Counted from the stretch's first letter, positions 5,497-22,191 are shown. The stretch: DNA of 32,000 nucleotides from Propionibacterium freudenreichii subsp. freudenreichii (GCF_000940845.1 NZ_CP010341.1:2010001-2042000); one strand, 5' to 3'. The notes: generated from the letters alone by a model not told the origin. Program-made: numbers and translations.

Positions 5497-5868
5497 TCAG
5501 CCGATCTTGATGAGACCCTGACCGCCCTGCACGGCGTCACGCTCCTTGACAAGGACCTTCTCGACCTTGCCGTCGGTGGGAGCGTTGATCTCGGTCTCCA
5601 TCTTCATGGCCTCGAGAACGAGCACGGTCTGACCAGCCTTGACCGTGTCACCCTCCTTCACGAGGATCTTGGAGACGGTGCCGGCCAGCGGAGCGGGAAT
5701 CTCGCCCTCTCCGGCCTTACCGGCGCCTGCGCCACCTGCTGCGCGCGGTGCCGGCGCGCCGCCGGTGCCGCCGCCGAACAGGATGGTGCCCATCGGGTTT
5801 TCGTGTGACTTGTCGACGTCAACGTCAACGTCATACGCAGTGCCGTTGACTGTTACCTTCAGTTTCAT
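5497..5868 (-). CDS. Methylmalonyl-CoA carboxyltransferase (transcarboxylase) 1.3S biotinyl carrier subunit
   Basis: The 123-aa product [37 protein letters not shown]...[10 protein letters not shown]...GLIKIG matches the P. shermanii 1.3S subunit as I remember it. It carries the AMKM biotinylation motif, and GGGAG lies upstream of ATG 5868. The ORF-track extension to 5994 is rejected. Confidence 0.97.
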
Positions 5869-5884
5869 GTGAGTTACTCCCGGA

Positions 5885-6133
5885 TCAACGAATGGAATGG
5901 TTCTGCAGAGCCCGACGACCCTCGCGGACCCAGTTCGGGCTCGGGGCGAAATGGACGACCTCAGCCGATCCATCGTTGCCGAGATAGGCCGCAACGGCGG
6001 CCGAAATGGCCGTCAGTACGTCCTCGGTGACACCCTGGGTATCGCTCTGGAGTGAACCCAACTCAGACTCCAATGACGCGACGCGCTTGTTGAGCGTGGC
6101 GATCATCAGGTCCTTCTCTTCCTCATCAGCCAT
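5885..6133 (-). CDS. Small (82 aa) acidic protein, AccE/PccE (acyl-CoA carboxylase epsilon)-like, or MmdE/OadG-motif-like
   Basis: A strong SD (GAGGAGAG) lies 6 nt upstream of the ATG. Gaps to the 12S stop and the 1.3S start are 15-16 nt. Codon style resembles the flanking operon genes. The protein has the motif [18 protein letters not shown] followed by a basic tail [17 protein letters not shown]. Confidence 0.6.
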
Positions 6134-6148
6134 AATTTCTCTCCTCGC

Positions 6149-7723
6149 TCAGCAGGGGAAGTTTCCATGCTTCTTCGCCGGGCGGGTCTGACGCTTGGTG
6201 GCGTAGATCTCCAGGGCGGAAGCAATCTTTCGACGGGTATCAGCCGGGTCAATCACGTCGTCGACCTGACCGCGGGCGGCGGCCACGTACGGCGTGTTGA
6301 ACGCGTTCTGGTACTCCTCGATCTTCTCGGCGCGCATGGCGTCGGGATCGTCGGCAGCCTTGATCTCCTTGCGGAAGATCACATTTGCCGCACCCTCGGC
6401 GCCCATCACCGCAATCTCGGCGCTGGGCCAGGCGTACACGGCGTCGGCACCAAGGTCACGGTTGCACATGGCCAGGTAGGAGCCGCCGTAGGCCTTGCGG
6501 AGCACCACGGTGATCTTCGGCACGGTGGCCTCGGAATAGGCGTACAGCATCTTCGCGCCATGGCGAATGATGCCGCCGTACTCCTGCTGCACGCCGGGCA
6601 GGAAGCCCGGCACGTCGACCAGCTGCACCAGCGGGATGTTGAACGAATCGCAGAAATTCACGAATTCGGCGGCCTTGTCAGAGGCGTTGATGTCGAGGCA
6701 ACCCGACATCACCGACGGCTGATTGGCCACGATGCCCACCGAACGACCATTGACCCGGGCGAAGGCGGTCACGAGGTTGGTGGCATAGCCGGCCTTGACC
6801 TCGAGGTAGTCACCCCAGTCGACGATCTTGGCAATGACATCGCGCACGTCATAGCCCTTCTTGCCGTCAATCGGAACGATGTCGCGCAGCTCGGTATTGG
6901 GGCTGACGTCATTGTTCGGGTTGACGAAGGAGGCTTCCTCAGTGTTGTTCTGCGGAAGGAAGCTCAGCAGCTTCTTGGCAATGAGCTCCGCGGCGTCGTC
7001 GTCCTCGGCCACGAAGTGGATATTGCCCGAGATGGCCATATGGGCCTCAGCGCCACCGAGTTCGTCAGCGGTGACATCCTCGCCGGTGACCGACTTGATG
7101 ACCTGGGGGCCCGTGATGAACATATGGGCCTTCTTGGTCATGATGATGAAGTCAGTCAGTGCCGGCGAATACGAGGCGCCACCGGCACAGGGGCCGGCAA
7201 TGATGGCGATCTGCGGCACGACGCCCGACAGCTTCACGTTGGCGAAGAACATCTTGCCGTAACCGCTCAGCGAGTCGATGCCCTCCTGGATCCGGGCGCC
7301 GCCCGAATCGTAGAAGAACAGGAAGGGCGTGCCGGTGAGCAGCGCCTGTTCCATCGTCTCGACGACCTTCGTGGACTGCGTCTCGCCAGCCGAACCACCC
7401 ATGACCGTGAAGTCCTGGGACGCGGCGTGCACGGGACGACCAAGGATGGTGCCACGGCCGGTGACCACGCCATCTGCCGGGACGACGGCCTTGTCCATGC
7501 CGAACAACGTGGTGCGGTGCTTGCGGAAAGCGCCGACCTCGTCGAACGAATGGGGATCGAGCAGGTTGTTCAGGCGCTCACGAGCGGTCTGCTTACCCTG
7601 GGAATGTTGCTTCTCGACGCGACGTTCGCCGCCACCGGCTTCGATCACCTGGCGCTGCTCTGCGAGCTGCTCCACGCGACCTTCCATGGTGCTGGCGAGC
7701 TTCAAATTGTTGTTTTCAGCCAT
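6149..7723 (-). CDS. Methylmalonyl-CoA carboxyltransferase 12S subunit (carboxyltransferase, PccB/AccD family)
   Basis: The 524-aa product starts MAENNNLKLASTMEGRVEQLAEQRQVIEAGGGERRVEKQH... and ends ...TRPAKKHGNFPC, matching the P. shermanii 12S sequence as I recall it. AGGATGA lies upstream of ATG 7723. Confidence 0.97.
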   Translation of the reverse strand: MAENNNLKLASTMEGRVEQLAEQRQVIEAGGGERRVEKQHSQGKQTARERLNNLLDPHSFDEVGAFRKHRTTLFGMDKAVVPADGVVTGRGTILGRPVHAASQDFTVMGGSAGETQSTKVVETMEQALLTGTPFLFFYDSGGARIQEGIDSLSGYGKMFFANVKLSGVVPQIAIIAGPCAGGASYSPALTDFIIMTKKAHMFITGPQVIKSVTGEDVTADELGGAEAHMAISGNIHFVAEDDDAAELIAKKLLSFLPQNNTEEASFVNPNNDVSPNTELRDIVPIDGKKGYDVRDVIAKIVDWGDYLEVKAGYATNLVTAFARVNGRSVGIVANQPSVMSGCLDINASDKAAEFVNFCDSFNIPLVQLVDVPGFLPGVQQEYGGIIRHGAKMLYAYSEATVPKITVVLRKAYGGSYLAMCNRDLGADAVYAWPSAEIAVMGAEGAANVIFRKEIKAADDPDAMRAEKIEEYQNAFNTPYVAAARGQVDDVIDPADTRRKIASALEIYATKRQTRPAKKHGNFPC

Positions 7724-7738
7724 GATTGGCAATCATCC

Positions 7739-9256
7739 TCACGCCTGCTGAACGGTGACTTCGCGGACGGTTCCGCCCACGTTCACGTTGTAGGTGACGG
7801 GACCGGCCACGGCGAGCGACTTCTCGTCGCCCTCGGCCTCGGCCTTCAGCTGGGCATCGGTGAGAGCCACGCTGTGCGGGCCCTCGGCGCGATGCTCGAA
7901 GAAGACCGGAGCGACCTGCGGGAACAGTGCATAGGTGAGCACGTCCTCGTCGGTGCCGTTGAAGCCCTTGAGCGTCGCGGCCTCCTTGGACTGCTTCTCC
8001 CACTCGGGGGGCAGCAGATCGGCCGGGCGCTGGGTGATCGGCTTCTTGCCGGACTGCTCCTCGGCCAACTTGACCACCTTCGGATCGCGATCGGCCGGGC
8101 TGGCGCCGTAGTAGCCGAGCATGATGTCGGCGAACTCGCCGGTCATCCTCTTGTACTCGCCCATCATCACGTTGAACACGGCCTGCGTGCCGACGATCTG
8201 GCTGGACGGGGTGACCAGGGGCGGGAAGCCGGCGGCCTTGCGGACGCGCGGAACCTCGGCCATGACCTCGTCCATCTTGTCCTCGGCGCCCTGGGCGCGC
8301 AGCTGCGACTCCATGTTGGAGAGCATGCCGCCGGGGATCTGCGACTTGAAGATCGAGGTGTCGACAAGCGTCTTCGACTCGAACTTCTTGTACTTCGGGC
8401 GGATGGCCTTGAAGTGATCGCGGATCTTGTGCAGGCGATCGTAGTCAAGGTTGGTGGTGTACCCGGTGCCCTCGAGCATCTCGGCGACCGACTCGGTGGG
8501 GTTGTGGCCCGGGCCGAGCGACATGGACGAGATGGCGGTGTCGACGACGTCGACGCCGGCCTCGATGGCCTTCATGAGGGAGACCTCGGTGACACCCGTG
8601 GTGGAGTGGCAGTGCAGGTTGATCTGCGTCTTCTGGCCGTAGGTGTCCTTGATGGCCTTGATGATGTCGTAGGCCGGCTGCGGCTTGAGCAGGGCGGCCA
8701 TGTCCTTCAGGGCGATGGAATCAGCACCCATGTCAAGCAGCTGACCAGCAAGCTTGACATAGCCCTCAACGGTGTGGACCGGGCTGATCGTGTAGCAAAT
8801 GGTGCCCTGCGCGTGCTTGCCGGCCTTCTTGACGGCAGCCATGGCGTGCGCCATGTTGCGGGGATCATTCATGGCGTCGAAGACACGGAACACGTCCATG
8901 CCGTTCTCAGCGGACTTGTCGACGAAGCGATCGACGACCTCGTCGTTGTAGTGGCGGTAACCCAGCAGGTTCTGGCCACGCAGCAGCATCTGGAGACGGC
9001 TGTTGGGCATCAGCTTGCGGAACGTGCGCAGACGCTCCCAAGGATCCTCGTTGAGGAAGCGGATACACGAGTCATACGTGGCACCACCCCAACACTCCAC
9101 TGACCAGTACCCGGCAGCATCAATGTCTGCACAGGCGCCGACCATGTCTTCCATTGCCATTCGTGTGGCCATCAGGCTCTGATGGGCATCGCGCAGCACG
9201 AGCTCGGTGATACCAACCTCGCGCGGCTCGGAAACCTCAATTTCTCGCGGACTCAT
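7739..9256 (-). CDS. Methylmalonyl-CoA carboxyltransferase 5S subunit (pyruvate carboxyltransferase, HMGL-like TIM barrel)
   Basis: The 505-aa product MSPREIEVSEPREVGITELVLRDAHQSLMATRM... ends ...VNVGGTVREVTVQQA, matching the P. shermanii 5S subunit as I recall it. GGGAGGA lies upstream of ATG 9256. The ORF-track extension to 9307 is rejected. Confidence 0.97.
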   Translation of the reverse strand: MSPREIEVSEPREVGITELVLRDAHQSLMATRMAMEDMVGACADIDAAGYWSVECWGGATYDSCIRFLNEDPWERLRTFRKLMPNSRLQMLLRGQNLLGYRHYNDEVVDRFVDKSAENGMDVFRVFDAMNDPRNMAHAMAAVKKAGKHAQGTICYTISPVHTVEGYVKLAGQLLDMGADSIALKDMAALLKPQPAYDIIKAIKDTYGQKTQINLHCHSTTGVTEVSLMKAIEAGVDVVDTAISSMSLGPGHNPTESVAEMLEGTGYTTNLDYDRLHKIRDHFKAIRPKYKKFESKTLVDTSIFKSQIPGGMLSNMESQLRAQGAEDKMDEVMAEVPRVRKAAGFPPLVTPSSQIVGTQAVFNVMMGEYKRMTGEFADIMLGYYGASPADRDPKVVKLAEEQSGKKPITQRPADLLPPEWEKQSKEAATLKGFNGTDEDVLTYALFPQVAPVFFEHRAEGPHSVALTDAQLKAEAEGDEKSLAVAGPVTYNVNVGGTVREVTVQQA

Positions 9257-9524: not shown

Positions 9525-10850
9525 TCAGCGGCGCACATCCTCCAACGAGGAAAGGCCCTGGGCGGCCGCCTGTGCAGCCTTGTGCAGGCCGGCGTCGATG
9601 ACCTCAAGGTCGTCGTCATCCAGGGCGGTGGAGCAGAACCAGGCCTCGAAGCCGCTGGGGGCCAGCCACAGGCCGGCATCGAGTGCCGCGTGGAAGAAGC
9701 GCGAGAACGCCTTGGTGTCCTGCTTGGACGCCGAGGCGAAGTCAGTCACCGGGGCGTCGGTGAGGAAGACGCTGAACAGGTTGGAGACCTTGTTGATCCG
9801 GTGGGGCACCCCGGCGGACTCCAGCGCCGCATCGGCCATCGCCGAGACCCGGTCGGCGGTGGCGTCCAGTCGGGAGTAGGCGGCGTCGTCCATGAGGGCA
9901 AGCGTGGCCAGCCCCGCCGCGCAGGCAGCCGGGTTACCCGACAGGGTGCCCGCCTGGTAGACGGGCCCCTCGGGGGCCAGGTAGTCCATCAGCTGCGCCG
10001 AACCACCCACGGCCGCCAGTGGCATGCCGCCACCGATCACCTTGCCGAAGGTGAACAGGTCGGGAGTCCACCCCTCCTTCGCCCCCTGCAGTCCCCAGGC
10101 GCCGGTGGGGCTCAGCCGGAAACCGGTGAGCACCTCGTCCTGGATGAGAAGGGCGCCGTGGGCGTGGGCGATGTCATGCAGGCGACGGTTGAAGCCCTCG
10201 GGCGGCACGATGACGCCCATGTTCGCCGGGACGCCCTCGGTGACGATGGCCGCCACCTGGTCGCCACGCTCGGCGAACAGCTCCTCGACCATGTCGATGC
10301 GCCCATAGGGCAGGGCGACCGTGTCGCCGGCGACCTCCTTGGGCACGCCGGGCGAATCGGGCAGGCCCAGGCTTGCCACCCCGGAGCCGGCCGACACCAG
10401 GAAGGAATCGGAATGGCCGTGGTAGCAGCCGACGAACTTGACCAGCAGCGGTCGCTTCGTGATGCCGCGCGCCAGTCGGGCCGCGGTCATCACGGCCTCG
10501 GTGCCCGAACAGGTGAAGCGCACCTTGTCGATGGCGCCGCCCATGCGGGCGACGACGGCCTGGGCGAGCCGCAGCTCCACCTCACTGGGCGCGCCGAACG
10601 AGGTGGAATCGGCAACGGCCTGCAGCACGGCGGCCACCACCTCGGGGTGGGCGTGGCCGGCGATCATCGGCCCCCAGCTGCACACCAGGTCGACATAGCG
10701 CTTGTCGTCGACGTCGACGATGTGGGAACCCAGCGCCCGCTTCACGAAGCGTGGCGTGCCCCCGACACTGCGGTAGGCGCGCACCGGCGAGGAGACGCCC
10801 CCGGGCATGACCTTGAGGGCTTCTGCGAACAATTCGTCACTGACACTCAT
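9525..10850 (-). CDS. hemL: Glutamate-1-semialdehyde 2,1-aminomutase
   Basis: MSVSDELFAEALKVMPGGVSSPVRAYRSVGG...; class-III aminotransferase with the PLP-lysine region (FTFGKVIGGGMPLAAVGG). Full length, 441 aa. Confidence 0.95.
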   Translation of the reverse strand: MSVSDELFAEALKVMPGGVSSPVRAYRSVGGTPRFVKRALGSHIVDVDDKRYVDLVCSWGPMIAGHAHPEVVAAVLQAVADSTSFGAPSEVELRLAQAVVARMGGAIDKVRFTCSGTEAVMTAARLARGITKRPLLVKFVGCYHGHSDSFLVSAGSGVASLGLPDSPGVPKEVAGDTVALPYGRIDMVEELFAERGDQVAAIVTEGVPANMGVIVPPEGFNRRLHDIAHAHGALLIQDEVLTGFRLSPTGAWGLQGAKEGWTPDLFTFGKVIGGGMPLAAVGGSAQLMDYLAPEGPVYQAGTLSGNPAACAAGLATLALMDDAAYSRLDATADRVSAMADAALESAGVPHRINKVSNLFSVFLTDAPVTDFASASKQDTKAFSRFFHAALDAGLWLAPSGFEAWFCSTALDDDDLEVIDAGLHKAAQAAAQGLSSLEDVRR

Positions 10851-10907
10851 GGGTTCTTCCTTGTCGGGCCGGGCATTCCGGCAGCGGGATGGCCTTGCCC
10901 CTCGATT

Positions 10908-11639
10908 CTAGGGTCTGCCCGCAGCGGGGCCGGCCCGACGACCGGTCGCCCAGGCGCGGGCCGGATCCGGGGCGCCTCCGGTGTGATCCGGGCCCCCGGC
11001 TCCCCCAGCGTCCCCGGCGCGCGTCGTCCCCGTGGCCAGCGGCAGGAAGACCGTGTCCACGATGTCCACGATGTCCTCGTCCGGCACGCTCTGGAAGGTC
11101 ATGAAGAACTGCAGGCGCACCAGGTCCATCGGCAGCGCCAGCACGCGTCGGGGCAGCGGCGCGGCGACCTCACCGCGAGCGATGGCACGCTCCACGAGCA
11201 GCGCCATCGTGTCCACCCGATCGCCCAGCAAATGGGCACGCAACTCCTGGGGCGTGGTGTTCGTCTCATCGAAGTAGGCCCCCAGCAACACGCTGATCAG
11301 GGCCGGCGCATCGTCGCCGAGGCGATTCGCGCCGCGCAGCACGGCCAGCACATCGCCACGCAGCGATCCGGTGTCGGGAACCGTTGCCGGGTCATTGAAG
11401 TAGCGCTGCGACAGCACGGCCAGCACCAGCGACTCCTTGTTGGGCCAGCGCCGGTAGAGGGCGGCCTTGCCGGTGTGGGCGCGCTCGGCCACTGCCTCGA
11501 AGGTGAGTCCGGCGTAGCCGGCACCGGCGAGTTCGCGCCATCCGGCGTCCAGGATCGCCTTCTCCAGCGCCGGGCCGCGCCGCCTGGTCTCCCGGGGGAT
11601 CGTCCCCTGCCCGTCCGCGTCCGCCACGACTCCCCCCAT
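10908..11639 (-). CDS. hemR: TetR-family regulator divergent from an MFS transporter; its position corresponds to hemR of the hemYHBXRL cluster described for P. freudenreichii (recollection)
   Basis: HTH region ALEKAILDAGWRELAGAGYAGLTFEAVAERAHTGKAALYRRWPNKESLVLAVL. The ORF runs to GTG 11687, but its first 16 codons fall in an AT-richer stretch, so ATG 11639 is preferred. The start is uncertain. Confidence 0.8.
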   Translation of the reverse strand: MGGVVADADGQGTIPRETRRRGPALEKAILDAGWRELAGAGYAGLTFEAVAERAHTGKAALYRRWPNKESLVLAVLSQRYFNDPATVPDTGSLRGDVLAVLRGANRLGDDAPALISVLLGAYFDETNTTPQELRAHLLGDRVDTMALLVERAIARGEVAAPLPRRVLALPMDLVRLQFFMTFQSVPDEDIVDIVDTVFLPLATGTTRAGDAGGAGGPDHTGGAPDPARAWATGRRAGPAAGRP

Positions 11640-11735
11640 CCCGAAAACCAACCCCGAAAAGTACTCATTGTGATCGCTTGCGTCCACTATCTTACGCGCC
11701 TATGTTGTGTACGCATTCGTTCTCTATTGGAGGTC
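11640..11735. promoter_or_regulatory. Divergent promoter/operator region between the TetR regulator and the MFS transporter
   Basis: This is the most AT-rich patch in the neighbourhood. Candidate -10 hexamers are TATGTT (11700-11705, plus strand, towards the MFS gene) and TAAGAT (complement 11689-11694, towards the TetR gene). GGAGG lies at 11729-11733, before ATG 11736. Confidence 0.35.
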
Positions 11736-13199
11736 ATGGTGGTGAATCCACACGATGGTGCGGCCACGACGCAGTCGACTGGCAGGTTGCTGGTCGCGCT
11801 GGTGGTCGGCGGGATCACGGCGATCATGGACACGACGATCGTCGCCATCGGCATGCACACCCTCACCGAGGCGCTGCACGCACCGGTCTCGACGCTGCAA
11901 TGGGTGAGCACCGGCTACCTGCTGGCGCTCGCGGTGGCGATCCCCTTCGTCAGTTGGGCCCAGACCCGGTTCGGGGGCAAGCGGCTGTGGCTGTTCGCGC
12001 TCGGACTGTTCACGGTGAGCTCCGCCCTGTGCGCGCTGAGCTGGAGCGCCGCCTCGCTCATCGCCTTCCGGGTGCTGCAGGGCTTCGGGGGCGGCATCAT
12101 GTTCCCGCTCATGCAGACCCTGGTGATGCAACACGTCGACCGACGTGGGATGACCCGGGCCATGGCCAATGTGAGCCTGCCGATCGCCCTGGGGCCGATC
12201 ATCGGGCCCGTACTCGGCGGCGTCGTGCTCAACTGGCTGTCCTGGCACTGGCTGTTCCTGATCAATGTGCCGATCGGCGTTGTGGGGTGGGTACTCGCCA
12301 TGGCGTTCATCACCGATGACCGTCCGCGCCCGGCAGCAGGCCACCCACGACTCGACCTGGTCGGCGCGGTGCTGTTGTCGCTGGCCCTGGCCGGCATGCT
12401 CTACGGCCTGTCCAATGCCTACGACGTGGGCGGCTTCCATCGCGCCGACGTGCTGGTTCCGGCATTGGTGGGCCTGGCGCTGCTGGCCGGATTCGTCGCC
12501 TGGGCGCGCCGACGCGGCAGCCGGGCCCTGATCGACGTGCGCCTGTTGGCGGTGCGCTCGGTGCGCGTCTCCTCGGTCACCCTGACGCTGGTGGGCGCCA
12601 CCCTGTTCTCGGCCAACTTCCTGTTGCCGCTGTACTTCCAGTCGTTGCGCGGCTACGACGCCCTCAACGCCGCGCTGCTGTTGATCCCGCAGGGCATCGG
12701 TTCCCTGCTGTCGCGGTTCATCGTGAGCTCCCTGGTCGCCCGCTTCGGCCCGCGCCTCACCGCGGTGGCAGGCCTGCTGATCAGCGCCGCCGCGACCGTC
12801 CCCTTCGCCCTGGCAGGCACCGACACCGGGCTGTGGCTGCTCGGCACGGTGCTGTTCGTGCGGGGCTTCGGCATGGGCGTGGTGCTCATCCCGATCATGA
12901 CCGGGGCCTATGTGGACATCGCCCGTGAGCACATGCCACATGCCTCGGCGATCACCCGCATCGTGCAACAGCTGGGTGGCGCCTTCGGCACGGCCCTGGT
13001 GGCGGTGGCGCTCACCTCACGAGCGAGCACCGCGCGTCCCCGGGACGGGTTCGATGCGGCCTTCTGGTGGACGATCGCCATGACCCTGGCGGCTGCCGTC
13101 GCCGCGCTGTTCCTCGCGCCGGACGAACGACCCACGGCCGAGCGCACGGACGCCACCCCGGCGAGCCGACAACCGGCCATCGTGGCTGCCGGCGACTAG
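11736..13199 (+). CDS. hemX: MFS transporter, DHA2 (EmrB/QacA-like, about 14 TM) drug:H+ antiporter type; its position corresponds to hemX of the hemYHBXRL cluster (recollection)
   Basis: These are the last 487 codons of the 9582..13199 ORF, starting MVVNPHDGAATTQSTGRLLVALVVGGITAIMDTTIVAIGMHTL after GGAGG. Many hydrophobic helices are present, along with the MFS motif region LQGFGGGIMFPLMQTLV. The upstream part of the long ORF is antisense to hemL/hemR and is rejected. Confidence 0.85.
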   Translation: MVVNPHDGAATTQSTGRLLVALVVGGITAIMDTTIVAIGMHTLTEALHAPVSTLQWVSTGYLLALAVAIPFVSWAQTRFGGKRLWLFALGLFTVSSALCALSWSAASLIAFRVLQGFGGGIMFPLMQTLVMQHVDRRGMTRAMANVSLPIALGPIIGPVLGGVVLNWLSWHWLFLINVPIGVVGWVLAMAFITDDRPRPAAGHPRLDLVGAVLLSLALAGMLYGLSNAYDVGGFHRADVLVPALVGLALLAGFVAWARRRGSRALIDVRLLAVRSVRVSSVTLTLVGATLFSANFLLPLYFQSLRGYDALNAALLLIPQGIGSLLSRFIVSSLVARFGPRLTAVAGLLISAAATVPFALAGTDTGLWLLGTVLFVRGFGMGVVLIPIMTGAYVDIAREHMPHASAITRIVQQLGGAFGTALVAVALTSRASTARPRDGFDAAFWWTIAMTLAAAVAALFLAPDERPTAERTDATPASRQPAIVAAGD

Positions 13200-13227: not shown

Positions 13228-14238
<1,011 letters not shown>

Positions 14239-14348: not shown

Positions 14349-15407
14349 TCACCGTGGACCCGCGGCGAAACCGGGGATCGTCGGCCTGCCGGCGATCCGG
14401 GCATTGGGACAGCAATCCGGCGTGCACCAATGGCGCGCGGCAGGGGCGTCGGGGCCGGTGCCCGGCTTGGTGGACAAGGCAGCGACGATCAGGTCGGCCA
14501 GCCCCTCGATGAAGACCGGCAGGGTGCCGACGGTGGCCACCCGGGTGAAGGCCATGGAGTGCTCGGCGGCCGTCGCGGCGGCCTCGGTGTCGAGGTCCCA
14601 GACCACCTCCATGTGATCGGTGAGGAATCCGATCGGTGAACAGATCACGTCGCGGACCCCCTCGCCGGCCAGGCGGGTGATCACGTCATTGATGTCAGGC
14701 TCCAGCCACGGCGTGCGTGGGCTCCCGGACCGCGATTGGTAGGCCAGCTCCCAGGAGGGACGCAGGCCAAGGGCGGCCAGCTCGGCCATCACCGCGTCGA
14801 TCAGCGCCAAGTGTTGCGGGATGTAGGCGTTGCCGTGCGGACCCGAGGTCTCGGCCATGGCGGTGGGGATGGAGTGGGTGGTGAACACCAGGTGGGCGTC
14901 GGGATGATCGGCCAAGGCCGCGCGCAACAGCTGTACCTGGGCGGTGACCAACGCCGGCAGGTCGGCATAGGGGTCGAGCTTGACCACCTGCAGGGCGGGG
15001 CGTCCCTCGTCGTCGATCCGGGTGCCGGCAAGCAGCTCCTCGCGATAGGCACGGCATCCGGAGTAGGACGCGTAGGGCGTGGGCACCAGCGTCAGCACCC
15101 GACGGATGCCACGGGACTGCAGGTCGGCCAGGGCCTGGTCCATGTAGGGCATCGAGTGGCGGTTGGCGTTGGCGATCGGCACGTCGATGCCCCGTGCCAC
15201 CAGCGCCTCCCCGAGGGCCGCGGCCAGGGCGCGGTGCTGGGCGTTCACCGGACTGACGCCGCCGAAGCGCGCGTAGTGGTGCTCCACCTCGGCCAGCCGG
15301 TCGGGCGGGATGTGCCCGCCGCTGACCCGTTGCAGGAAATCGGGCACCTCCGCCATCGATTCGGGACCGCCGAAACCAGCGACCAGTAGGGCGTCGAAGC
15401 TCGTCAT
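14349..15407 (-). CDS. hemH: Ferrochelatase (coproporphyrin ferrochelatase CpfC type), with a Cys-rich C-terminal tail
   Basis: The 352-aa product starts MTSFDALLVAGFGGPESMAEVPDFLQRV... and has the motif region ICSPIGFLTDHMEVVWDLD. Its ATG (15407) overlaps the hemY stop as ATGA. The ORF-track N-terminal extension to 15869 lies inside hemY in another frame and is rejected. Confidence 0.9.
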   Translation of the reverse strand: MTSFDALLVAGFGGPESMAEVPDFLQRVSGGHIPPDRLAEVEHHYARFGGVSPVNAQHRALAAALGEALVARGIDVPIANANRHSMPYMDQALADLQSRGIRRVLTLVPTPYASYSGCRAYREELLAGTRIDDEGRPALQVVKLDPYADLPALVTAQVQLLRAALADHPDAHLVFTTHSIPTAMAETSGPHGNAYIPQHLALIDAVMAELAALGLRPSWELAYQSRSGSPRTPWLEPDINDVITRLAGEGVRDVICSPIGFLTDHMEVVWDLDTEAAATAAEHSMAFTRVATVGTLPVFIEGLADLIVAALSTKPGTGPDAPAARHWCTPDCCPNARIAGRPTIPGFAAGPR

Positions 15408-16987
15408 CGGGTCTCCGTCCGGTCGGTGGCGGCGTTGCCGGTGGGTGCGCTCGGGGTAGCGGCCAGTGCGGCGTCGATCACCTCGTCGGCGCTGTGCCGG
15501 GCGTCGCTGATGCAGTCGGGCAGCCCGACGCCGTGCAGGGCACTCCCGGCAACCGCCCAGGTGGGACGCTGCTCGGCCAGCGTGGAATCGACCACCGCAG
15601 CGCGCTCCAGGTGTCCCACGGTGTACTTGGGCATCACCTTGTGCCAGCGGGTGATCTGGGTGAGGCCGGGCTCGCCGTGCACGCCCAGCAGGGGGCGCAC
15701 ATGGTCGATCACCGCGCTGAGCAGCTCGTCGTCGGGGGCGTCGGTGAGCGGGCCGCGCTTGTCGGGGACGAAGACGCGCATCAGCACCGAACCGTCGGGG
15801 GCGCGGCCGGCGAACTTGATGGAGCTGGCGGTCAGGCCACTGACCGGGCCGGCGTCGGCCTCGAGCCAACCCTGCGAATCAGGGGCGACGTCGAAGGCGC
15901 TGACCGGCCAGGCCAGCGAGACGATCGTCGTGGAGGCCAGGGGGATCTGCGCCAGGGCACGGGCGGCGGCCGGCAGCTGGGGTCGCAGCAACCGCGCCGA
16001 GCTGGCCACTCCCCCGGCAAGTACCACCGCATCGGCGGGCAGCACCCGCCCATCGGACAGGTGCACCCCGTCGCGGCCCAGCAGGTCGACGCTGGTGTTC
16101 ACCAGCAGCTCGACGCCACCGGCACGCAGCTGGTCGACCAGGGCATCGATCAGCTGGCCGAGGCCCCCGCGCAACGTGCGGAAGGGGGATGCGGCCGGGC
16201 CGCGTGTCCCCGCTGAGTTGTTCTGGCCTGTGCTGTTCTGGTGCGAGCTGTTCTGCTGCGCGTTGTTCTGGGCCGCCCGCTGCCGGGCCGCGCGCCGGCT
16301 GGCGCGTCCGCCGGCAAGGGAGGCGACCATCAGGGAGCGGTGGTCGCGCTCGTTGTCACGCAGGCTCGGCAGCACGGCGTCGAGGCTCAGCTCGTCGATA
16401 CCGGCACCGTAGATGCCGCCGACCATCGGATCGGCGAAGCGACGCACGATGCCATCACCCAGGCGTTGGCGCAGGAAGGCGCCGATCGCCACGTCATGGT
16501 CGGGCAGGCGGCGCGGGATCACCAGGTCGAGCCCGGCGCGGATCTTGTCGGGCCATGACAGCACGGTGGTGGTGACGAAGGGCCACATGCGGGTCGGCAG
16601 CACCATGCCCATGCCGGCCGGCATCGGACGCAGCTTGCCGCGCGACAGCAGGCTCACACGGCGTCCCCCACCCGGTGCGATCACCTGGTCGGACAGGCCC
16701 AGCTCCTCGATCAACTTCAGTGCGGCGGGCCGGTAGGCGACGAACGAGTCGGGCCCCTGCTCCACCAGGAAGCCGTCGCGCCGGTCGGTGACGACCTTGC
16801 CGCCGAAGTGGTCATCGGACTCCACAACGCTGACCCGCGCGCCGCGGGCCATGCCCTGCCAGGCAGCGGCCAGGCCGGTGATGCCGCCGCCGACCACCAC
16901 CAGGTGGCAGTGCGAGGCATCAGGGCCGGGCGCGTCGGTGCCGGAAACGGTCGGGGTGGGGGTGGTCACACGATCGGTGGTGCTCAT
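15404..16987 (-). CDS. hemY: HemY-type FAD oxidase (protoporphyrinogen/coproporphyrinogen III oxidase, CgoX)
   Basis: FAD dinucleotide-binding motif HLVVVGGGITGLAAAW...VSVVESDDHFGGKV. The protein is 527 aa, longer than typical HemY because of an internal Q/N-rich insert. Confidence 0.9.
   Translation of the reverse strand: MSTTDRVTTPTPTVSGTDAPGPDASHCHLVVVGGGITGLAAAWQGMARGARVSVVESDDHFGGKVVTDRRDGFLVEQGPDSFVAYRPAALKLIEELGLSDQVIAPGGGRRVSLLSRGKLRPMPAGMGMVLPTRMWPFVTTTVLSWPDKIRAGLDLVIPRRLPDHDVAIGAFLRQRLGDGIVRRFADPMVGGIYGAGIDELSLDAVLPSLRDNERDHRSLMVASLAGGRASRRAARQRAAQNNAQQNSSHQNSTGQNNSAGTRGPAASPFRTLRGGLGQLIDALVDQLRAGGVELLVNTSVDLLGRDGVHLSDGRVLPADAVVLAGGVASSARLLRPQLPAAARALAQIPLASTTIVSLAWPVSAFDVAPDSQGWLEADAGPVSGLTASSIKFAGRAPDGSVLMRVFVPDKRGPLTDAPDDELLSAVIDHVRPLLGVHGEPGLTQITRWHKVMPKYTVGHLERAAVVDSTLAEQRPTWAVAGSALHGVGLPDCISDARHSADEVIDAALAATPSAPTGNAATDRTETR
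16212..16271 (-). repeat. 4 x 15-nt in-frame tandem repeat inside hemY, encoding QNNAQ-QNSSH-QNSTG-QNNSA
   Basis: TGTTCTG recurs at 16219, 16234, 16249 and 16264, a period of exactly 15 nt. The coding-strand units are cagaacaacgcgcag / cagaacagctcgcac / cagaacagcacaggc / cagaacaactcagcg. Confidence 0.85.
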
Positions 16988-16990
16988 TGG

Positions 16991-18112
16991 TCAGGCAACA
17001 CTCAGATCGTGTTCGCGCATCTTCTCAGGCACATAGGGGCACAGCGGGTCGGAGGCGAGCGGGTCGCCGGTCCAGGCATAGGCACGGGCCCGCGAGCCGC
17101 CGCACCAACGGTCGAATTCGCAGACACCGCAGCGTCCCTTGAACTCCTCGGGACGGCGCAGCTGGCGCATCAGCTCGGTGTCGCGGTAGAGCTCCACGAT
17201 GCTGCGGTCCTTGACATTGCCCACCGACAGCGGCAGGAAGCCCGAGGGCATGACCTCGCCCAGGTGCGAGATGAACACGATGCCGTTCCCGTCGCGGATG
17301 CCGAAGCCACGGGCCGCCGGGCTGTTCTCCACGTCCTCGCGGGTCTTGCCGGCATGCATCATGGCCTGCGCATTGATGCGGCGGTACTGCATGGCCTCGG
17401 TGGTCTTGATGCGGAACGGCGAGGTGCGTCCGATCCTGCCCCACTTGATGAGGGTGCGCTCGGCGTCACCGGGGGTGAGCTCGCGCAGCTGGGCACCGCG
17501 TCCCACCGAGATGAGGAAGAACAGGCTCCACTGCATGACGTCGTAGTTCTTGAGCAGTTCGTAGACATCGTCGAGGTCCTTGGCGGTCTCGTCGGTGACC
17601 AGGGTGTTGATCTGCACGGGCACACCGGCCGCGTTCGCGTCGGCCAGCGCGGTCATGGTGGCGTCGAAGGTGCCCGGCACCTGGCGGATGCCGTCGTGGT
17701 GGGCGGCCGTGGAGCCGTCGAGGCTCAACGAGATGGCCTGCACGTCCAGCGCCTTGAGGTCCTTGAGTCGCTGGGCCGACAGCAGCGGGGTGACGGCCGG
17801 GGCCAGCGAGACGCCGAGCCCGCGCTGGTTCGCGGCGGCGATGAGCTGGTCGAGGTCGCCGCGACGCATCGGGTCGCCGCCGGTGAAGATCACATGGGGT
17901 GCCGGGGAGCCGAAGCCGGCGAACTCGTCGAGCACGCCGAGTGCCTCGTCGGTGGTCAGCTCGCCGGGTGCCGGATCGGGCTGGGCCGTCGCGCGACAAT
18001 GCCGGCACGCCAGGCCACAGGCAGTGGTCAGCTCCCAGTAGATGATCATCGGTGCGCGGTCGTAGGCCCAGTTGACGGGCTTGACGGAACCGATTCCGGC
18101 GGGATGTGACAT
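16991..18112 (-). CDS. Radical SAM/SPASM-domain protein of the NirJ/AhbC/AhbD family (candidate O2-independent coproheme decarboxylase, AhbD-like)
   Basis: The 373-aa product starts at ATG 18112 (MSHPAGIGSVKPVNW...). It has a CX3CX2C cluster (ELTTACGLACRHCRA), a GGDP SAM-binding motif, family-typical LFFLISVGRG and FISHLGEVMPSGFLPLSVGNV, and a C-terminal SPASM Cys cluster (GRCGVCEFDRWCGGSRARAYAWTGDPLASDPLCPY). There is 1 nt between the hemDE stop and its ATG, and 3 nt between its stop and the hemY ATG. The ORF-track extension to 18271 is rejected. Confidence 0.85.
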   Translation of the reverse strand: MSHPAGIGSVKPVNWAYDRAPMIIYWELTTACGLACRHCRATAQPDPAPGELTTDEALGVLDEFAGFGSPAPHVIFTGGDPMRRGDLDQLIAAANQRGLGVSLAPAVTPLLSAQRLKDLKALDVQAISLSLDGSTAAHHDGIRQVPGTFDATMTALADANAAGVPVQINTLVTDETAKDLDDVYELLKNYDVMQWSLFFLISVGRGAQLRELTPGDAERTLIKWGRIGRTSPFRIKTTEAMQYRRINAQAMMHAGKTREDVENSPAARGFGIRDGNGIVFISHLGEVMPSGFLPLSVGNVKDRSIVELYRDTELMRQLRRPEEFKGRCGVCEFDRWCGGSRARAYAWTGDPLASDPLCPYVPEKMREHDLSVA

Positions 18113-18113
18113 A

Positions 18114-20012
18114 TCAGTGTCCTTTCGCAGCTGCGGGCGCCTCATGGACCAGGTCGACGATGTGCGCCAGCACATCGGGGTTGGTGTCCTTGGGCACGCC
18201 ATGTGCCAGATTGACGATGTGGGCGGGCGCGGCGCGTCCGGCGGCCAGCACTGCTGCCACCGCGGCGTCAACCGCCTCGGGCGGGCCGGCCAGCACGGCC
18301 GGGTCGATGTTGCCCTGCAGCGGGGTGCGTCCGCCGAGCAGCTCGTTGGCGGCGTCCAGCGTCAGGTCGGCACCCACGCCCATGACGTCGGCTCCGGCGT
18401 CGCGCATCGCCACCAGCAGGTGGCCGGTGCCGGTGCCGAAGTGGATGCGGGGCACGCCGAGCTCGCCCAGGGCACGCAGAACGCGTCCGGATGCGGGCTG
18501 CACGTGCACCAGGTAGTCGGCCAGCGACAACTCGCCGACCCAGGAGTCGAACAGCTGCACGGCACTGGCGCCGGCCAGCACCTGGGCGCGCAGGAAGGCG
18601 ATGTCGACCTCGGCCACCCATTCGAGCAGCGCCTCCCACGCCTGCGGATCGTCATGCATGAGCGCATGGGTGCGCGGATGGGTGCGATTGGGGCGGCCCT
18701 CCACCAGATAGGACGCCACCGTGAACGGGGCGCCGGCGAAGCCGATCAGTGGCACATCGGGCAGCTGGGCGGTCACCCGTCCGATCGCCTCGCGGATCGG
18801 GGCCAGGGCCTCGTCGGTGAGCGTCGGCAGCGCGGCGATGTCGTCACGGCTGCGCACCGGATGGGCCAGCACGGGACCCACGCCCGGTTCGATCTCGACG
18901 TCGACGCCGGCCAGCTTGAGCGGCACCATGATGTCGGAATAGAAGATCGCCGCATCCACGCCGTAGCGACGCACCGGCTGCAGGGTGAGCTCGGCGGCCA
19001 GGGCCGGGTCCAGGCACGATTCCAGCATCGTGGTGCCCTCGCGGGCGGCCCGGTACTCGGGCAGCGATCGCCCGGCCTGGCGCATGAACCACACCGGGGT
19101 GCGGGCCGGACGGTCGCCACGGCAGGCGCTCAGCAGCGCACTGTCGGCGATGGCGCCGGAGTGGCTGGGATGGTCGGCGGGCAGCGCTTCGGGGTAGATC
19201 TCCTGCGACAGTGCCCGGCCGCCGAGCAGGCGGGCGGCCAGGGCGGCCACCTCCTGCGGATGGGCCGAGGGACAGGCCTGCACGGTGAATCCGGCCTCGC
19301 GGGCGGCGGCGCTGGTGGTGGGTCCGGCGGTGATCACCGCAGTGGACGCCGGAATCGGCGTGCCCCCGGTGAACTCGGCCAGGGCCTGCACGGCACTGGG
19401 TGAACGCAGCACGACGGCGCTGAACGCACCGGACGCCAACAGCTCGGCGCTCTCGGGGCGCCGGGCCACCGGATGGGTCTGGTAGATGGCCGAGCGCAGC
19501 ACGTGCCAGCCGGCACGTTCCAGCGCCTCGGGGAGCTCCTTGCGGGCGATGGTGCTGCCCGGGATCAGTGCCACCGGCGGCAGGCCGGCGTTGTCGGGGT
19601 CCCCGGTGATGCGGGGCAGTTCCCGGCCGTTGACCAGCCGGGCCAGCTCGGCGGCATTGGGTGCCATCTGTGCGACCCCGGCGAGCTTGGCAGGCAGCGA
19701 ATCGCGGGTTGCGGGCCCGGTGCAGAACACGCGCATGCCGCGGTCGACCGCGCCGACGGCCGCATTCTCCAGCGCCGCGACGCCCACCTGCTGCGCCCAG
19801 TGCTGCCAGGTGCGCGGCGAGGTGATCAGCAGGATCACCTGGGCCCCGCTCGATTGCAGGAAGCCCGTCATCCGGTGGGCCGGCGCGGAATCGTCGGCGG
19901 CACGCACCTCGAGCCAGGGATCGATCGTCGAGGCAAGGCCGAAGCGATCGAGCGCGATGGCGTCCCGCTCATTGCCGTCGGGACGGATGAGCAGGAGGGG
20001 GCGGACTGTCAT
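18114..20012 (-). CDS. hemE: Bifunctional fusion: uroporphyrinogen-III synthase (HemD, about aa 1-265) + uroporphyrinogen decarboxylase (HemE, about aa 289-632)
   Basis: A single uninterrupted 632-aa ORF. The N-terminal half has the two-lobe HEM4 pattern (LLIRP...ILLITSPRTW...ALIPGSTIARKELPEALERAGWHVLRSAIYQT...VVLRSPSAV). The C-terminal half has the URO-D signature RTPVWFMRQAGRSLPEYR and ...FDSWVG.... The start overlaps the hemC stop as ATGA. Confidence 0.9.
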   Translation of the reverse strand: MTVRPLLLIRPDGNERDAIALDRFGLASTIDPWLEVRAADDSAPAHRMTGFLQSSGAQVILLITSPRTWQHWAQQVGVAALENAAVGAVDRGMRVFCTGPATRDSLPAKLAGVAQMAPNAAELARLVNGRELPRITGDPDNAGLPPVALIPGSTIARKELPEALERAGWHVLRSAIYQTHPVARRPESAELLASGAFSAVVLRSPSAVQALAEFTGGTPIPASTAVITAGPTTSAAAREAGFTVQACPSAHPQEVAALAARLLGGRALSQEIYPEALPADHPSHSGAIADSALLSACRGDRPARTPVWFMRQAGRSLPEYRAAREGTTMLESCLDPALAAELTLQPVRRYGVDAAIFYSDIMVPLKLAGVDVEIEPGVGPVLAHPVRSRDDIAALPTLTDEALAPIREAIGRVTAQLPDVPLIGFAGAPFTVASYLVEGRPNRTHPRTHALMHDDPQAWEALLEWVAEVDIAFLRAQVLAGASAVQLFDSWVGELSLADYLVHVQPASGRVLRALGELGVPRIHFGTGTGHLLVAMRDAGADVMGVGADLTLDAANELLGGRTPLQGNIDPAVLAGPPEAVDAAVAAVLAAGRAAPAHIVNLAHGVPKDTNPDVLAHIVDLVHEAPAAAKGH

Positions 20013-20941
20013 GGGCGCTCCAGAAGCTGTTCGGCGACACTTTCCCCAAGCGCCCGGGCGTCGTCGGTCGGGTCACCCCGGCGCAGGCCGATGGTGCGGG
20101 CGACATGGGCATGGGCGACGCCCATGTGATCGGTGAGGTCGGCCATCAGCGTCAGGGAATAGCCCTGCAGCACGCTGTGGGCTCCGATGGCGGTGGTGCA
20201 GGTGGCCTGCACGCCGGTGAGCACCTGGCGCTCGGCGGCCACCTGGATGCGCGTGTCGTGGTCGTTGATCTGCGCGACGGTGGCGGCCAACGGATCATCG
20301 GTGCGCATCTCGACGGCGAGGGCGCCCTGCGCCGGGGCGGGCACGATCACCTTCGGGTCGATCAGCTCGGTGATCTCGTCGTGCAGGCCGAGCCGCTCCA
20401 GGCCGGCGGCGGCGAGCACGGCGGCGTCGACGCGTCCCTCGCGCACCTTGCGGATGCGGGTATCGACATTGCCCCTGATGGGCACGATCTCCAGGTCGTC
20501 GCGGTAGCGCAGCAGCGCGCTGGCGCGCCGCGGGCTGGACGTGCCGACCTTCGATCCGGCCGGCAGCTCGTCGAGGCCCAGTGCGTCGCGGCTCACCAGG
20601 GCGTCGAAGGCGGCGGCGCGCTGCGGCACGGCCACCACCGACAGCCCGGGCATGGGCGCGAAGGGCAGGTCCTTGAAGGAATGCACGGCGATGTCGACTT
20701 CGCCGTCGAGCAGCACATCACGCAGGCGGGCGACGAAGGCCCCCGGGCGCGGCGGCGCCGACAGCGGGATCGACAGGTCGTCGCCGTCGGTGCGCACGAT
20801 CACCAGTTCGGTGGGCAGCCCGGTGACCTGTTCAATGAGGGCGGCTGTCATGGCGCTCTGCGAGCGCGCCAGCCGCGAACCCCGAGTGCCGATCTTCAGC
20901 ACGCGGCGATCACCCGAGGCGCCCTGCGGGGTCTGGCTCAC
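20009..20941 (-). CDS. hemC: Hydroxymethylbilane synthase (porphobilinogen deaminase)
   Basis: LKIGTRGSRLARSQS..., ...VHSFKDLP..., ...RGNVDTRIRKV.... The GTG start overlaps the hemA stop as GTGA. Confidence 0.95.
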   Translation of the reverse strand: MSQTPQGASGDRRVLKIGTRGSRLARSQSAMTAALIEQVTGLPTELVIVRTDGDDLSIPLSAPPRPGAFVARLRDVLLDGEVDIAVHSFKDLPFAPMPGLSVVAVPQRAAAFDALVSRDALGLDELPAGSKVGTSSPRRASALLRYRDDLEIVPIRGNVDTRIRKVREGRVDAAVLAAAGLERLGLHDEITELIDPKVIVPAPAQGALAVEMRTDDPLAATVAQINDHDTRIQVAAERQVLTGVQATCTTAIGAHSVLQGYSLTLMADLTDHMGVAHAHVARTIGLRRGDPTDDARALGESVAEQLLERP

Positions 20942-22191
20942 GCTTCCACCTCGACACCGAACAGCACGTCCAGGGCGGTCCTGCAGTCCTCGAGCTTGCC
21001 CTCCTCGGCAAGCTGCGAGAAGCGCACCGTGGGGGTGTGCATCATGACGCCGATGGCGTGGCGCAGCGACCGTTCGACGGCCTGCACCACCTCGGGTGAC
21101 TCGTTCTCGCGCACGCGTGCCAGTTCATCGTCGACGAGCACCTTCGCATGCTGGCGCAGCGCCGTGACGAGCGGATCGGCGACCCTGGCGCGTTCCTTGG
21201 ACAGATGGGCGGCGACACCCTGGGTGACCACGCGTTGTGCCTCCTCGATCACGGCGGACTGCAGCTGTGCGGTGCGCGAGCTGACATCGTCGAGTCGCAC
21301 CAGGTGCACGCCGGGCAGTTCGGCGGCGGCCTCGTCGACATCGCCGCCCAGCGAGAGGTCGATCACCGACAGTTGCCGGTCGGCGTTGCGCGCCAGTTCC
21401 GGGCGTGCGGCCGACAGCGTGGTGCCACTGAGCACCACCCCGTTGCCCGAGCAGGTGATCACCAGGTCGGCCGATTGCAGTGCCCGGTCCAGGCCATCGG
21501 ACGACACCGGCGTCACCGGATGGTGTGCGGCGAATTCCTCGGCGCGTCCCGATGCCGACCAGCACTCGATCTCGCCGACCCGTCGGTCGGTGAGCTCGGC
21601 GACCACCACACGGGCGAATGATCCGGTGCCCATCAGCAGCACGCGCGCGCCCCGCAGGCCGCCACGCCCCATGGCCAGGTCGAGTCCGACGCCGGCGGCG
21701 GAGCGTCCCACCGCACCCAGCGAGGTGGACGAGGCGACCGTGCGCGAGACGCGCAGGCAGTCGTGGAAGAGCCGGTGCAGGCGCGCGGTGCACTGGCCCC
21801 GGTCGGAGGCCAGCTCATAGGCACGGCGCAACTGGCCGGCCACCTGCTTGTCGCCGACCACGGCGGAACACAGTCCGGCGCCCACCTCGAACAGGTGGCA
21901 GATGGCGGTGTCGTCGCTGCGCACCTCCAGTCCGGCCAGCGCACGGGGATCGACATCGGGGGCGAGCTCGCGGATTCCGGCCTTGGCCAGCCCGAGCAGA
22001 CGGTCGGGGTCCACGGCATCGGTGGCATCGACGATCAGCTCATAGCGGTTGCACGTGGACAGCAGGGCGGCCCCGGCGATGCCGGGTTCGCGTCCCATGA
22101 CCGTGAGGGCCAGCTCGTCAGCCGGCGCCAGCGAGGCAAGGGCTGTCAGTGGCGCCGTAAGATAGTCGACGCCGACGAGATGGATACGCAC
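20938..22191 (-). CDS. hemA: Glutamyl-tRNA reductase
   Basis: Has the active-site Cys motif ALLSTCNRYELIV, an NADPH-binding region VLLMGTGSFARVV and a C-terminal dimerisation helix. The start is GTG at 22191. Confidence 0.95.
   Translation of the reverse strand: MRIHLVGVDYLTAPLTALASLAPADELALTVMGREPGIAGAALLSTCNRYELIVDATDAVDPDRLLGLAKAGIRELAPDVDPRALAGLEVRSDDTAICHLFEVGAGLCSAVVGDKQVAGQLRRAYELASDRGQCTARLHRLFHDCLRVSRTVASSTSLGAVGRSAAGVGLDLAMGRGGLRGARVLLMGTGSFARVVVAELTDRRVGEIECWSASGRAEEFAAHHPVTPVSSDGLDRALQSADLVITCSGNGVVLSGTTLSAARPELARNADRQLSVIDLSLGGDVDEAAAELPGVHLVRLDDVSSRTAQLQSAVIEEAQRVVTQGVAAHLSKERARVADPLVTALRQHAKVLVDDELARVRENESPEVVQAVERSLRHAIGVMMHTPTVRFSQLAEEGKLEDCRTALDVLFGVEVEA

Follow-up and report, generated by a model that had tools for sequence, protein, structure and literature searches.

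A candidate oxygen-independent coproheme decarboxylase of the AuxII-only AhbD type in the hem operon of Propionibacterium freudenreichii

Radical SAM gene in the hem operon

The stretch analysed here, a window of 32,000 nucleotides from the chromosome of Propionibacterium freudenreichii subsp. freudenreichii DSM 20271 (NZ_CP010341.1:2010001-2042000), contains a hem operon with the order hemA-hemC-hemD::hemE-rSAM-hemY-hemH, all on the minus strand, in which rSAM codes for a radical S-adenosylmethionine (SAM) protein of 373 residues (RM25_1802 / RM25_RS08885 / AJQ91506.1 in record CP010341.1). A preliminary description, made from the DNA sequence, had recognised this gene as part of a coproporphyrin-type hem operon, which is what we find. 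From the gene itself, its operon position, motifs, family placement and expression, we propose that rSAM is probably an O2-independent coproheme decarboxylase (heme b synthase) related to AhbD, belonging to the class with a single C-terminal auxiliary cluster (AuxII), and that it acts in parallel to a ChdC-type enzyme. The identical protein is called on the complete P. freudenreichii chromosomes LT576034.1, LT618785.1 and CP116039.1, which identifies the window as the well-known hem region of this species.

The rSAM gene is separated by one nucleotide from hemD::hemE (TGA-t-ATG) and by three from hemY (TGA-cca-ATG), the very gaps read in the preliminary description, and hemY and hemH share an ATGA overlap (15404-15407). 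This spacing indicates that hemD::hemE, rSAM, hemY and hemH are translationally coupled, and the overlap leaves no room for chdC at the hemY/hemH junction. In agreement with the earlier reading, no ChdC-like sequence was found in the window, either by tblastn with two Propionibacteriaceae ChdC queries (E<1e-5) or by Pfam analysis of the other open reading frames (ORFs). In addition, no ahbA, ahbB or ahbC was found in the window or, up to a distance of 10 kb, at related loci, and no heme d1 or siroheme genes are present near rSAM.

The radical SAM motif CX3CX2C, first noticed as ACGLACRHC, is present as C32/C36/C39. These three cysteines are unchanged in 29 homologues, as are all four cysteines of the C-terminal AuxII motif ('CGVCEFDRWCGGSRAR...CPY'), which fits the conserved AhbD motif CX2CX5CX20-38C. 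The C-terminal pattern, CX2CX5CX20C in rSAM, had been taken to indicate a SPASM domain, but only half of such a domain is there: the four cysteine ligands of the other auxiliary cluster (AuxI) are all missing, their positions being occupied by E239, Ile, S290 and S340, and no Pfam SPASM match was obtained at E<=0.001, PF04055 being the sole Pfam domain. The protein has seven cysteines in total, and can thus accommodate one auxiliary cluster site, not the full SPASM pair.

Opposite rSAM runs an antisense ORF of 433 codons (16808-18109, plus strand), and another of 1205 codons is found at 9582-13199. The long antisense ORFs of the window gave no family match where tested, and they are not regarded as genes, being by-products of the G+C content of about 70%.

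Family placement and comparison with AhbD

Among the NCBIfam models, rSAM matches TIGR04053 best (BA_1875-type radical SAM/SPASM; 435.2 bits, above the cutoff of 395, E=2e-130), and does so end to end, with residues 17-362 aligned to positions 3-366 of a model of 366. The second best match, also over the full length, is to the AhbD heme b synthase model TIGR04545 (295.8 bits, below the cutoff of 500), and much weaker scores are obtained with the models for NirJ2 (175 bits), NirJ (162 bits) and AhbC (153 bits), whose cutoffs are 500-650. AhbD is therefore by far the nearest characterised family, which upholds the initial assignment to the AhbD/NirJ lineage and not to HemN. TIGR04053 itself carries no functional name at NCBI, and nothing relevant to TIGR04053 or BA_1875 was found in the full texts searched.

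A published comparison of AhbD proteins provides the framework for reading these scores. Fix et al. 2023 distinguish two groups: AhbDs with a full SPASM domain, from methanogens and sulfate reducers, which are the only ones assayed, and AhbDs of non-methanogenic archaea, which keep AuxII and have Glu, Ser and Ser at the positions of C223, C274 and C324; the C-terminal CX2CX5CX20-38C motif is conserved in 39 of 39 AhbDs. The internal motifs singled out in the preliminary description (LFFLISVGRG, FISHLGEVMPSGFLP and GGSRARAY) match up with this published alignment. In its best match to TIGR04053, its set of cysteines, the Glu/Ser/Ser replacement and the C-terminal end TGDPLASDPLCPYVP, which is nearly the same in the haloarchaeal AhbDs, rSAM resembles the AuxII-only archaeal proteins of Halorubrum (Hlac_1215), Natronomonas (NP_1546A) and Pyrobaculum (PAE0596). 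The Haloferax protein HVO_2144 is presumably a member of the same group.

The identities follow the same trend. Over residues 83-373 of rSAM they amount to 44% with the haloarchaeal Hlac_1215 (41-44% among haloarchaeal AhbDs) and 41% with the crenarchaeal PAE0596, and to 37% and 35%, respectively, with the verified canonical AhbDs DVU_0855 of Desulfovibrio vulgaris and Mbar_A1458 of Methanosarcina barkeri. These reference sequences were taken from the supplement of Fix et al. 2023 by optical character recognition (OCR), and lack about 80 N-terminal residues. The fragments of Hlac_1215, PAE0596 and SSO1631 have TIGR04053 as their best model, with a score profile like that of rSAM, and those of DVU_0855 and Mbar_A1458 have TIGR04545 (542 and 483 bits). 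Canonical AhbDs thus share with rSAM full-length homology at 35-37% identity, together with the radical SAM and AuxII motifs, and differ from it by their four AuxI cysteines, by TIGR04545 scores above the 296 bits of rSAM, and by their pathway context. NirJ, AhbC, NirJ1 and NirJ2 belong to the same branch of the superfamily and have a similar C-terminal CX2CX5CX20-21C motif, but much lower model scores.

A neighbour-joining tree of 84 sequences (279 columns, without an outgroup) separates these groups. The canonical AhbDs form a clade with 96% bootstrap support, in which 17 of 17 members have Cys at all four AuxI positions, and rSAM lies outside it. The Propionibacteriaceae proteins, including rSAM, form a clade of their own, apart from the archaeal AhbDs (100% bootstrap; AuxI positions E/I/S/S), and so do the haloarchaeal AhbDs (100%; E/I(V)/S/S). 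The preliminary description had made its assignment depend on a phylogeny with verified Ahb and NirJ sequences, and in the strict sense the placement goes against it, as rSAM falls outside the verified-AhbD clade and below the equivalog cutoff; it does, however, group with the AuxII-only archaeal AhbDs. The Glu/Ser/Ser replacement is also found in most TIGR04053 representatives, and a search of 1.8 billion cluster representatives returned, among the matches sampled, a TIGR04053 continuum and a group scoring best on the AhbD model.

Several other assignments were considered and rejected. HemN, HemW and CgdH are absent from the 25 best NCBIfam matches, and PF04055 is found by Pfam without HemN_C. 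The scores of 153-175 bits are far below the cutoffs for membership in NirJ or AhbC, and that for PqqE (TIGR02109) is 98.1 bits against a cutoff of 381, with hem genes as neighbours. As a radical SAM enzyme, rSAM does not share the chlorite dismutase fold of ChdC/HemQ (PF06778 / NF042928), and can be at most a functional analogue of ChdC.

The AlphaFold model of rSAM (predicted local distance difference test score, pLDDT, 81.7) has a SPASM/twitch radical SAM fold that comes closest to SuiB and PqqE and also resembles SkfB and anSME, in line with what Fix et al. 2023 report for AhbD models. A sequence search of the Protein Data Bank (PDB) and Foldseek retrieved only generic SPASM/twitch enzymes, no structure of an AhbD being available. 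The nearest solved structures could suggest that rSAM is only a passenger of the hem operon with an unrelated function, for example in peptide or cofactor maturation, as a heme chaperone or in the modification of tetrapyrroles, and both the lack of a functional name for TIGR04053 and the occurrence of some family members away from hem genes would be compatible with this. We consider it highly improbable. The PqqE model is missed by a wide margin, and the scores for mycofactocin and sactipeptide maturase models are likewise far under their cutoffs; no precursor-peptide or pqq genes are found nearby; the coupling to adjoining genes is tight, and the synteny with late heme genes is kept across genera; and the Glu/Ser/Ser and C-terminal signatures are common to rSAM and the archaeal AhbDs. 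The GenBank label of AJQ91506.1, 'Coenzyme PQQ synthesis protein', is a mislabel, probably given because PqqE is the closest relative that has been characterised or solved.

Gene order in related bacteria

The order hemE-rSAM-hemY-chdC-hemH is found in Brooklawnia cerclae (locus L007), a genome from JGI (L092), metagenome-assembled genomes (MAGs) of Propionibacteriaceae (L010, L011), Propioniciclava (L014) and a Nanopelagicales MAG (L030). At six related loci chdC codes for 220-224 residues and lies between hemY and hemH (e.g. 12494-13156 in L007 and 12525-13199 in L092), and the ChdC proteins of these relatives pass the HemQ_actino model NF042928 where tested (300-311 bits, cutoff 235). The operon is without chdC at the Propionibacterium-genus loci examined (P. 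freudenreichii, P. cyclohexanicum and two MAGs), and the loss of this gene is clean, with neither remnant nor spacer between hemY and hemH. Since rSAM occupies the same slot between hemE and hemY with or without chdC, it keeps a place of its own, and what changed is the loss of chdC. The suggestion that rSAM sits at the site expected for hemQ was thus mistaken, as relatives with both genes have them in different places.

The association of rSAM with the operon shows some variation. In Propionimicrobium sp. (L008, 8645-11140) the hem cluster is dispersed, and the rSAM gene is divergent from hemH alone, about 240 bp apart. Of the 80 ChdC loci listed, only four lie within 6 kb of a close homologue of rSAM (65-71% identity), and a fifth has a distant homologue (40%); Arthrobacter and its relatives are among those without a nearby one. 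Within the cluster rSAM is the best-conserved protein, with 68-71% identity versus 40-63% for the others; actinobacterial HemQs show about 55-60% mutual identity. No HemH-HemQ fusions of close relatives were found among the best 120 HemH matches. In the Actinomycetes MAG L060 (7805-10308, minus strand) a HemY-like gene (30% identity) comes immediately before an rSAM homologue of 40% identity, while hemE-chdC-hemH lie on the other strand, so that rSAM is paired with a HemY-type oxidase in this different arrangement too.

The proximity to hemY raises the question of whether rSAM acts earlier, on a metal-free substrate, either as an O2-independent coproporphyrinogen III oxidase that backs up HemY, which the preliminary description had also mentioned, or as a CgdH-like coproporphyrinogen decarboxylase. 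The two genes are directly adjacent at nearly all loci, including the distant pair of L060, and CgoX requires O2 in vitro; as the O2-independent CgoN is almost confined to Bacillaceae (2024 CgoN paper), Actinobacteria would have no known alternative to CgoX. Nevertheless, such a role seems to us improbable. The Propionimicrobium gene pairs with hemH and not with hemY, and neither HemN nor CgdH is among the best NCBIfam or Pfam matches of rSAM. A six-electron ring oxidation has no known precedent among radical SAM enzymes. All the characterised chemistry of this lineage consists of side-chain removal or decarboxylation on iron tetrapyrroles, according to reviews, and, according to PMC6620371, the CgoX of Staphylococcus aureus already serves anaerobic heme synthesis.

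A chlorite dismutase family protein encoded elsewhere

A candidate gene for ChdC is listed at another place in the P. freudenreichii genome. The supplementary tables of Dank et al. 2021 contain the P. freudenreichii entry UPI0001D5CC29, named chlorite dismutase or chlorite dismutase family protein, which corresponds to PFREUD_23510 / RM25_2250 and their equivalents in about 20 strains and appears in the lists of detected proteins. In the full texts searched for P. freudenreichii chlorite dismutase or coproheme nothing relevant was found, the gene being named in supplementary tables only. We infer that PFREUD_23510/RM25_2250 is probably a true ChdC.

In the aerobic versus anaerobic transcriptome of DSM 20271, the RM25_2250 transcript is raised by air at both time points sampled, the profile expected of an O2/H2O2-dependent heme synthase. 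The transcripts of RM25_1802, hemC and hemA are up under air at the late point only. The rSAM protein is also produced, with seven peptides identified by mass spectrometry in the proteome of the same strain.

These data bear on the claim, implied in the preliminary description, that rSAM replaces ChdC. In its strong form this would make rSAM the sole coproheme decarboxylase and the obligatory last heme step in all conditions, with PFREUD_23510 doing something else. In its favour, none of the Propionibacterium-genus loci examined has chdC between hemY and hemH, where relatives retain it, and PFREUD_23510 is known by a generic name only ('chlorite dismutase family protein'). However, a chlorite dismutase (Cld) family gene occurs in all the strains listed, its protein is made, and it is aerobically induced at both points; Cld-family proteins of Actinobacteria are normally ChdCs; and coexistence is the norm in the family, because relatives keep both rSAM and chdC. 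A complete replacement is thus unlikely, and the claim does not hold as made. ChdC/HemQ, which shares the operon in relatives, would catalyse the same overall reaction as that proposed for rSAM, but it is heme-dependent and uses H2O2, with neither an Fe-S cluster nor SAM involved, and it is unrelated to rSAM in fold, chemistry and sequence.

A precedent for two parallel enzymes is found in Haloferax volcanii, where deletion of ahbD impairs anaerobic growth only, deletion of the ChdC-like pitA impairs aerobic growth, and heme rescues both. The pairing of an AhbD with a ChdC-type protein, serving anaerobic and aerobic growth, respectively, is the arrangement that we propose for P. freudenreichii. 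The pathways differ, since the AuxII-only archaeal AhbDs are assigned to the siroheme-dependent route, after AhbA, AhbB and AhbC, whereas the neighbours of rSAM are CgoX and CpfC of the coproporphyrin pathway.

Proposed reaction

By analogy with characterised AhbDs, from which the substrate, the activity and the division of labour with ChdC are inferred, rSAM is predicted to convert coproheme to heme b without O2, as canonical AhbD does. Its CX3CX2C [4Fe-4S] cluster would cleave SAM reductively, and the resulting 5'-deoxyadenosyl radical would abstract a hydrogen from the propionate of ring A and then of ring B of Fe-coproporphyrin III, supplied by the CpfC (HemH) encoded next to it. Each of the two substrate radicals would give up CO2 and one electron to form a vinyl group, so that the two decarboxylations, with one SAM each, would consume two SAM per heme. 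The electron could leave via the heme iron, the single C-terminal auxiliary cluster, or both. Co-transcribed with the hem operon, rSAM would complement, and not replace, the separately encoded and aerobically induced ChdC-type protein, and would allow P. freudenreichii, an aerotolerant anaerobe, to make heme with or without O2/H2O2.

Several observations weigh against this proposal. According to Fix et al. no AuxII-only AhbD has been studied biochemically, and perturbation of AuxI in M. barkeri AhbD blocks the second decarboxylation, AuxII being dispensable (Fix et al. 2023); without AuxI, rSAM might therefore halt at the monovinyl intermediate or work in a different way. Its score lies under the AhbD equivalog cutoff (296 versus 500 bits) and it is placed outside the verified-AhbD clade, in a tree that has no outgroup and in which the archaeal anchors, typed from OCR text, are about 80 N-terminal residues short. 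The rSAM transcript tracks the hem operon and is aerobically up at the late point, not anaerobically induced. Finally, two family members examined outside the Actinomycetota have no adjoining hem genes, one being next to cytochrome and Fe-S genes and the other next to a flavodoxin gene, although such a context is in itself uninformative. Even so, we still favour rSAM as the likely O2-independent coproheme decarboxylase.

The idea of a hybrid pathway, presented in the preliminary description as a little-characterised variant, is already a published hypothesis that awaits its test, and rSAM is no surprise to specialists. Reviews, including that of Layer et al., name an AhbD-like radical SAM enzyme as a candidate for this step, as a hypothesis only, and close homologues of rSAM are already named 'AdoMet-dependent heme synthase' in JGI annotations. 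Nevertheless, the 2024 CgoN paper describes as "yet unknown" the enzyme with which Gram-positive bacteria that use the coproporphyrin pathway complete heme in the absence of oxygen, and a recent overview of P. freudenreichii heme genes omits rSAM. With a candidate inside the hem operon and chdC lost from it, this species is convenient for a direct test. As a would-be bacterial representative of the AuxII-only AhbD class, rSAM could also reveal the role of the missing AuxI cluster. In the unlikely event that PFREUD_23510 is no coproheme decarboxylase, there would be a bacterial coproporphyrin pathway that ends in radical SAM chemistry, carried out by a class of AhbD without the cluster on which the second decarboxylation depends in the one AhbD that has been studied well.

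Other features of the window

The coordinates of rSAM, its motifs and the surrounding hem genes are collected in Table 1.

Table 1. Features of the rSAM gene and of the neighbouring hem genes, with positions counted from the first nucleotide of the window
Feature	Position	Strand	Evidence
rSAM gene (373 aa; TIGR04053 family, AuxII-only AhbD-type)	16991..18112	(-)	ORF, NCBIfam, genome match, proteome
Radical SAM [4Fe-4S] motif C32-X3-C36-X2-C39 ('TTACGLACRHC')	17996..18019	(-)	translation; Pfam PF04055 E=5e-18
Single auxiliary (AuxII) motif C328-X2-C331-X5-C337-X20-C358 ('CGVCEFDRWCGGSRAR...CPY')	17039..17131	(-)	translation
E239 (TTEAM), at M. barkeri AhbD AuxI ligand C223	17396..17398	(-)	published AhbD alignment; invariant in homologues
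S290 (MPSGFLP), at AuxI ligand C274 (M. barkeri numbering)	17243..17245	(-)	alignment
S340 (CGGSRAR), at AuxI ligand C324 (M. barkeri numbering)	17093..17095	(-)	alignment
hemA (glutamyl-tRNA reductase), first gene of the operon	20938..22191	(-)	NF000750 292.5 bits
hemC (hydroxymethylbilane synthase)	20009..20941	(-)	TIGR00212 289 bits
hemD::hemE fusion (uroporphyrinogen III synthase + uroporphyrinogen decarboxylase), 632 aa	18114..20012	(-)	Pfam HEM4 21-250, URO-D 291-624; TIGR01464
hemY (CgoX-type coproporphyrinogen oxidase), 527 aa	15404..16987	(-)	TIGR00562 219.9 bits, cutoff 97.85
hemH (CpfC-type ferrochelatase), 352 aa	14349..15407	(-)	TIGR00109, PF00762
hemB (porphobilinogen synthase)	13228..14226	(-)	NF006762 446 bits
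hemL-type aminotransferase (glutamate-1-semialdehyde aminomutase candidate)	9525..10850	(-)	PF00202 in gene calls of identical loci

The hemD::hemE fusion is common to the Propionibacterium-genus loci, hemE being separate in more distant relatives, and L092 has a hemC::hemD fusion. In assembly L005 only the URO-D part, of 345 residues, is called. A 2024 paper took the hemD::hemE gene simply as hemE, and named another locus as putative uroporphyrinogen III synthase.

Between hemB and hemL, P. freudenreichii has an insert of two genes, coding for a major facilitator superfamily (MFS) transporter (11736-13199, plus strand) and a TetR regulator (10908-11687, minus strand), which may correspond to 'hemX/hemR' in the earlier description of a hemYHBXRL cluster. 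In P. cyclohexanicum and two related MAGs hemB is followed directly by hemL, without the insert, and in strain LT576034.1 the MFS gene is in two pieces, of 345 and 125 codons. Beside the hem region, on the minus strand (5497-9256), lie transcarboxylase (methylmalonyl-CoA carboxyltransferase) genes of the 5S type (7739-9256) and 12S type (6149-7723), with a biotin-carrier ORF (5497-5994). The C-terminus of HemH (14349-14480, minus strand) has a Cys-rich tail (…HWCTPDCCPNARIAG…), which is presumably similar to the [2Fe-2S]-binding extension known from ferrochelatases of Actinobacteria.

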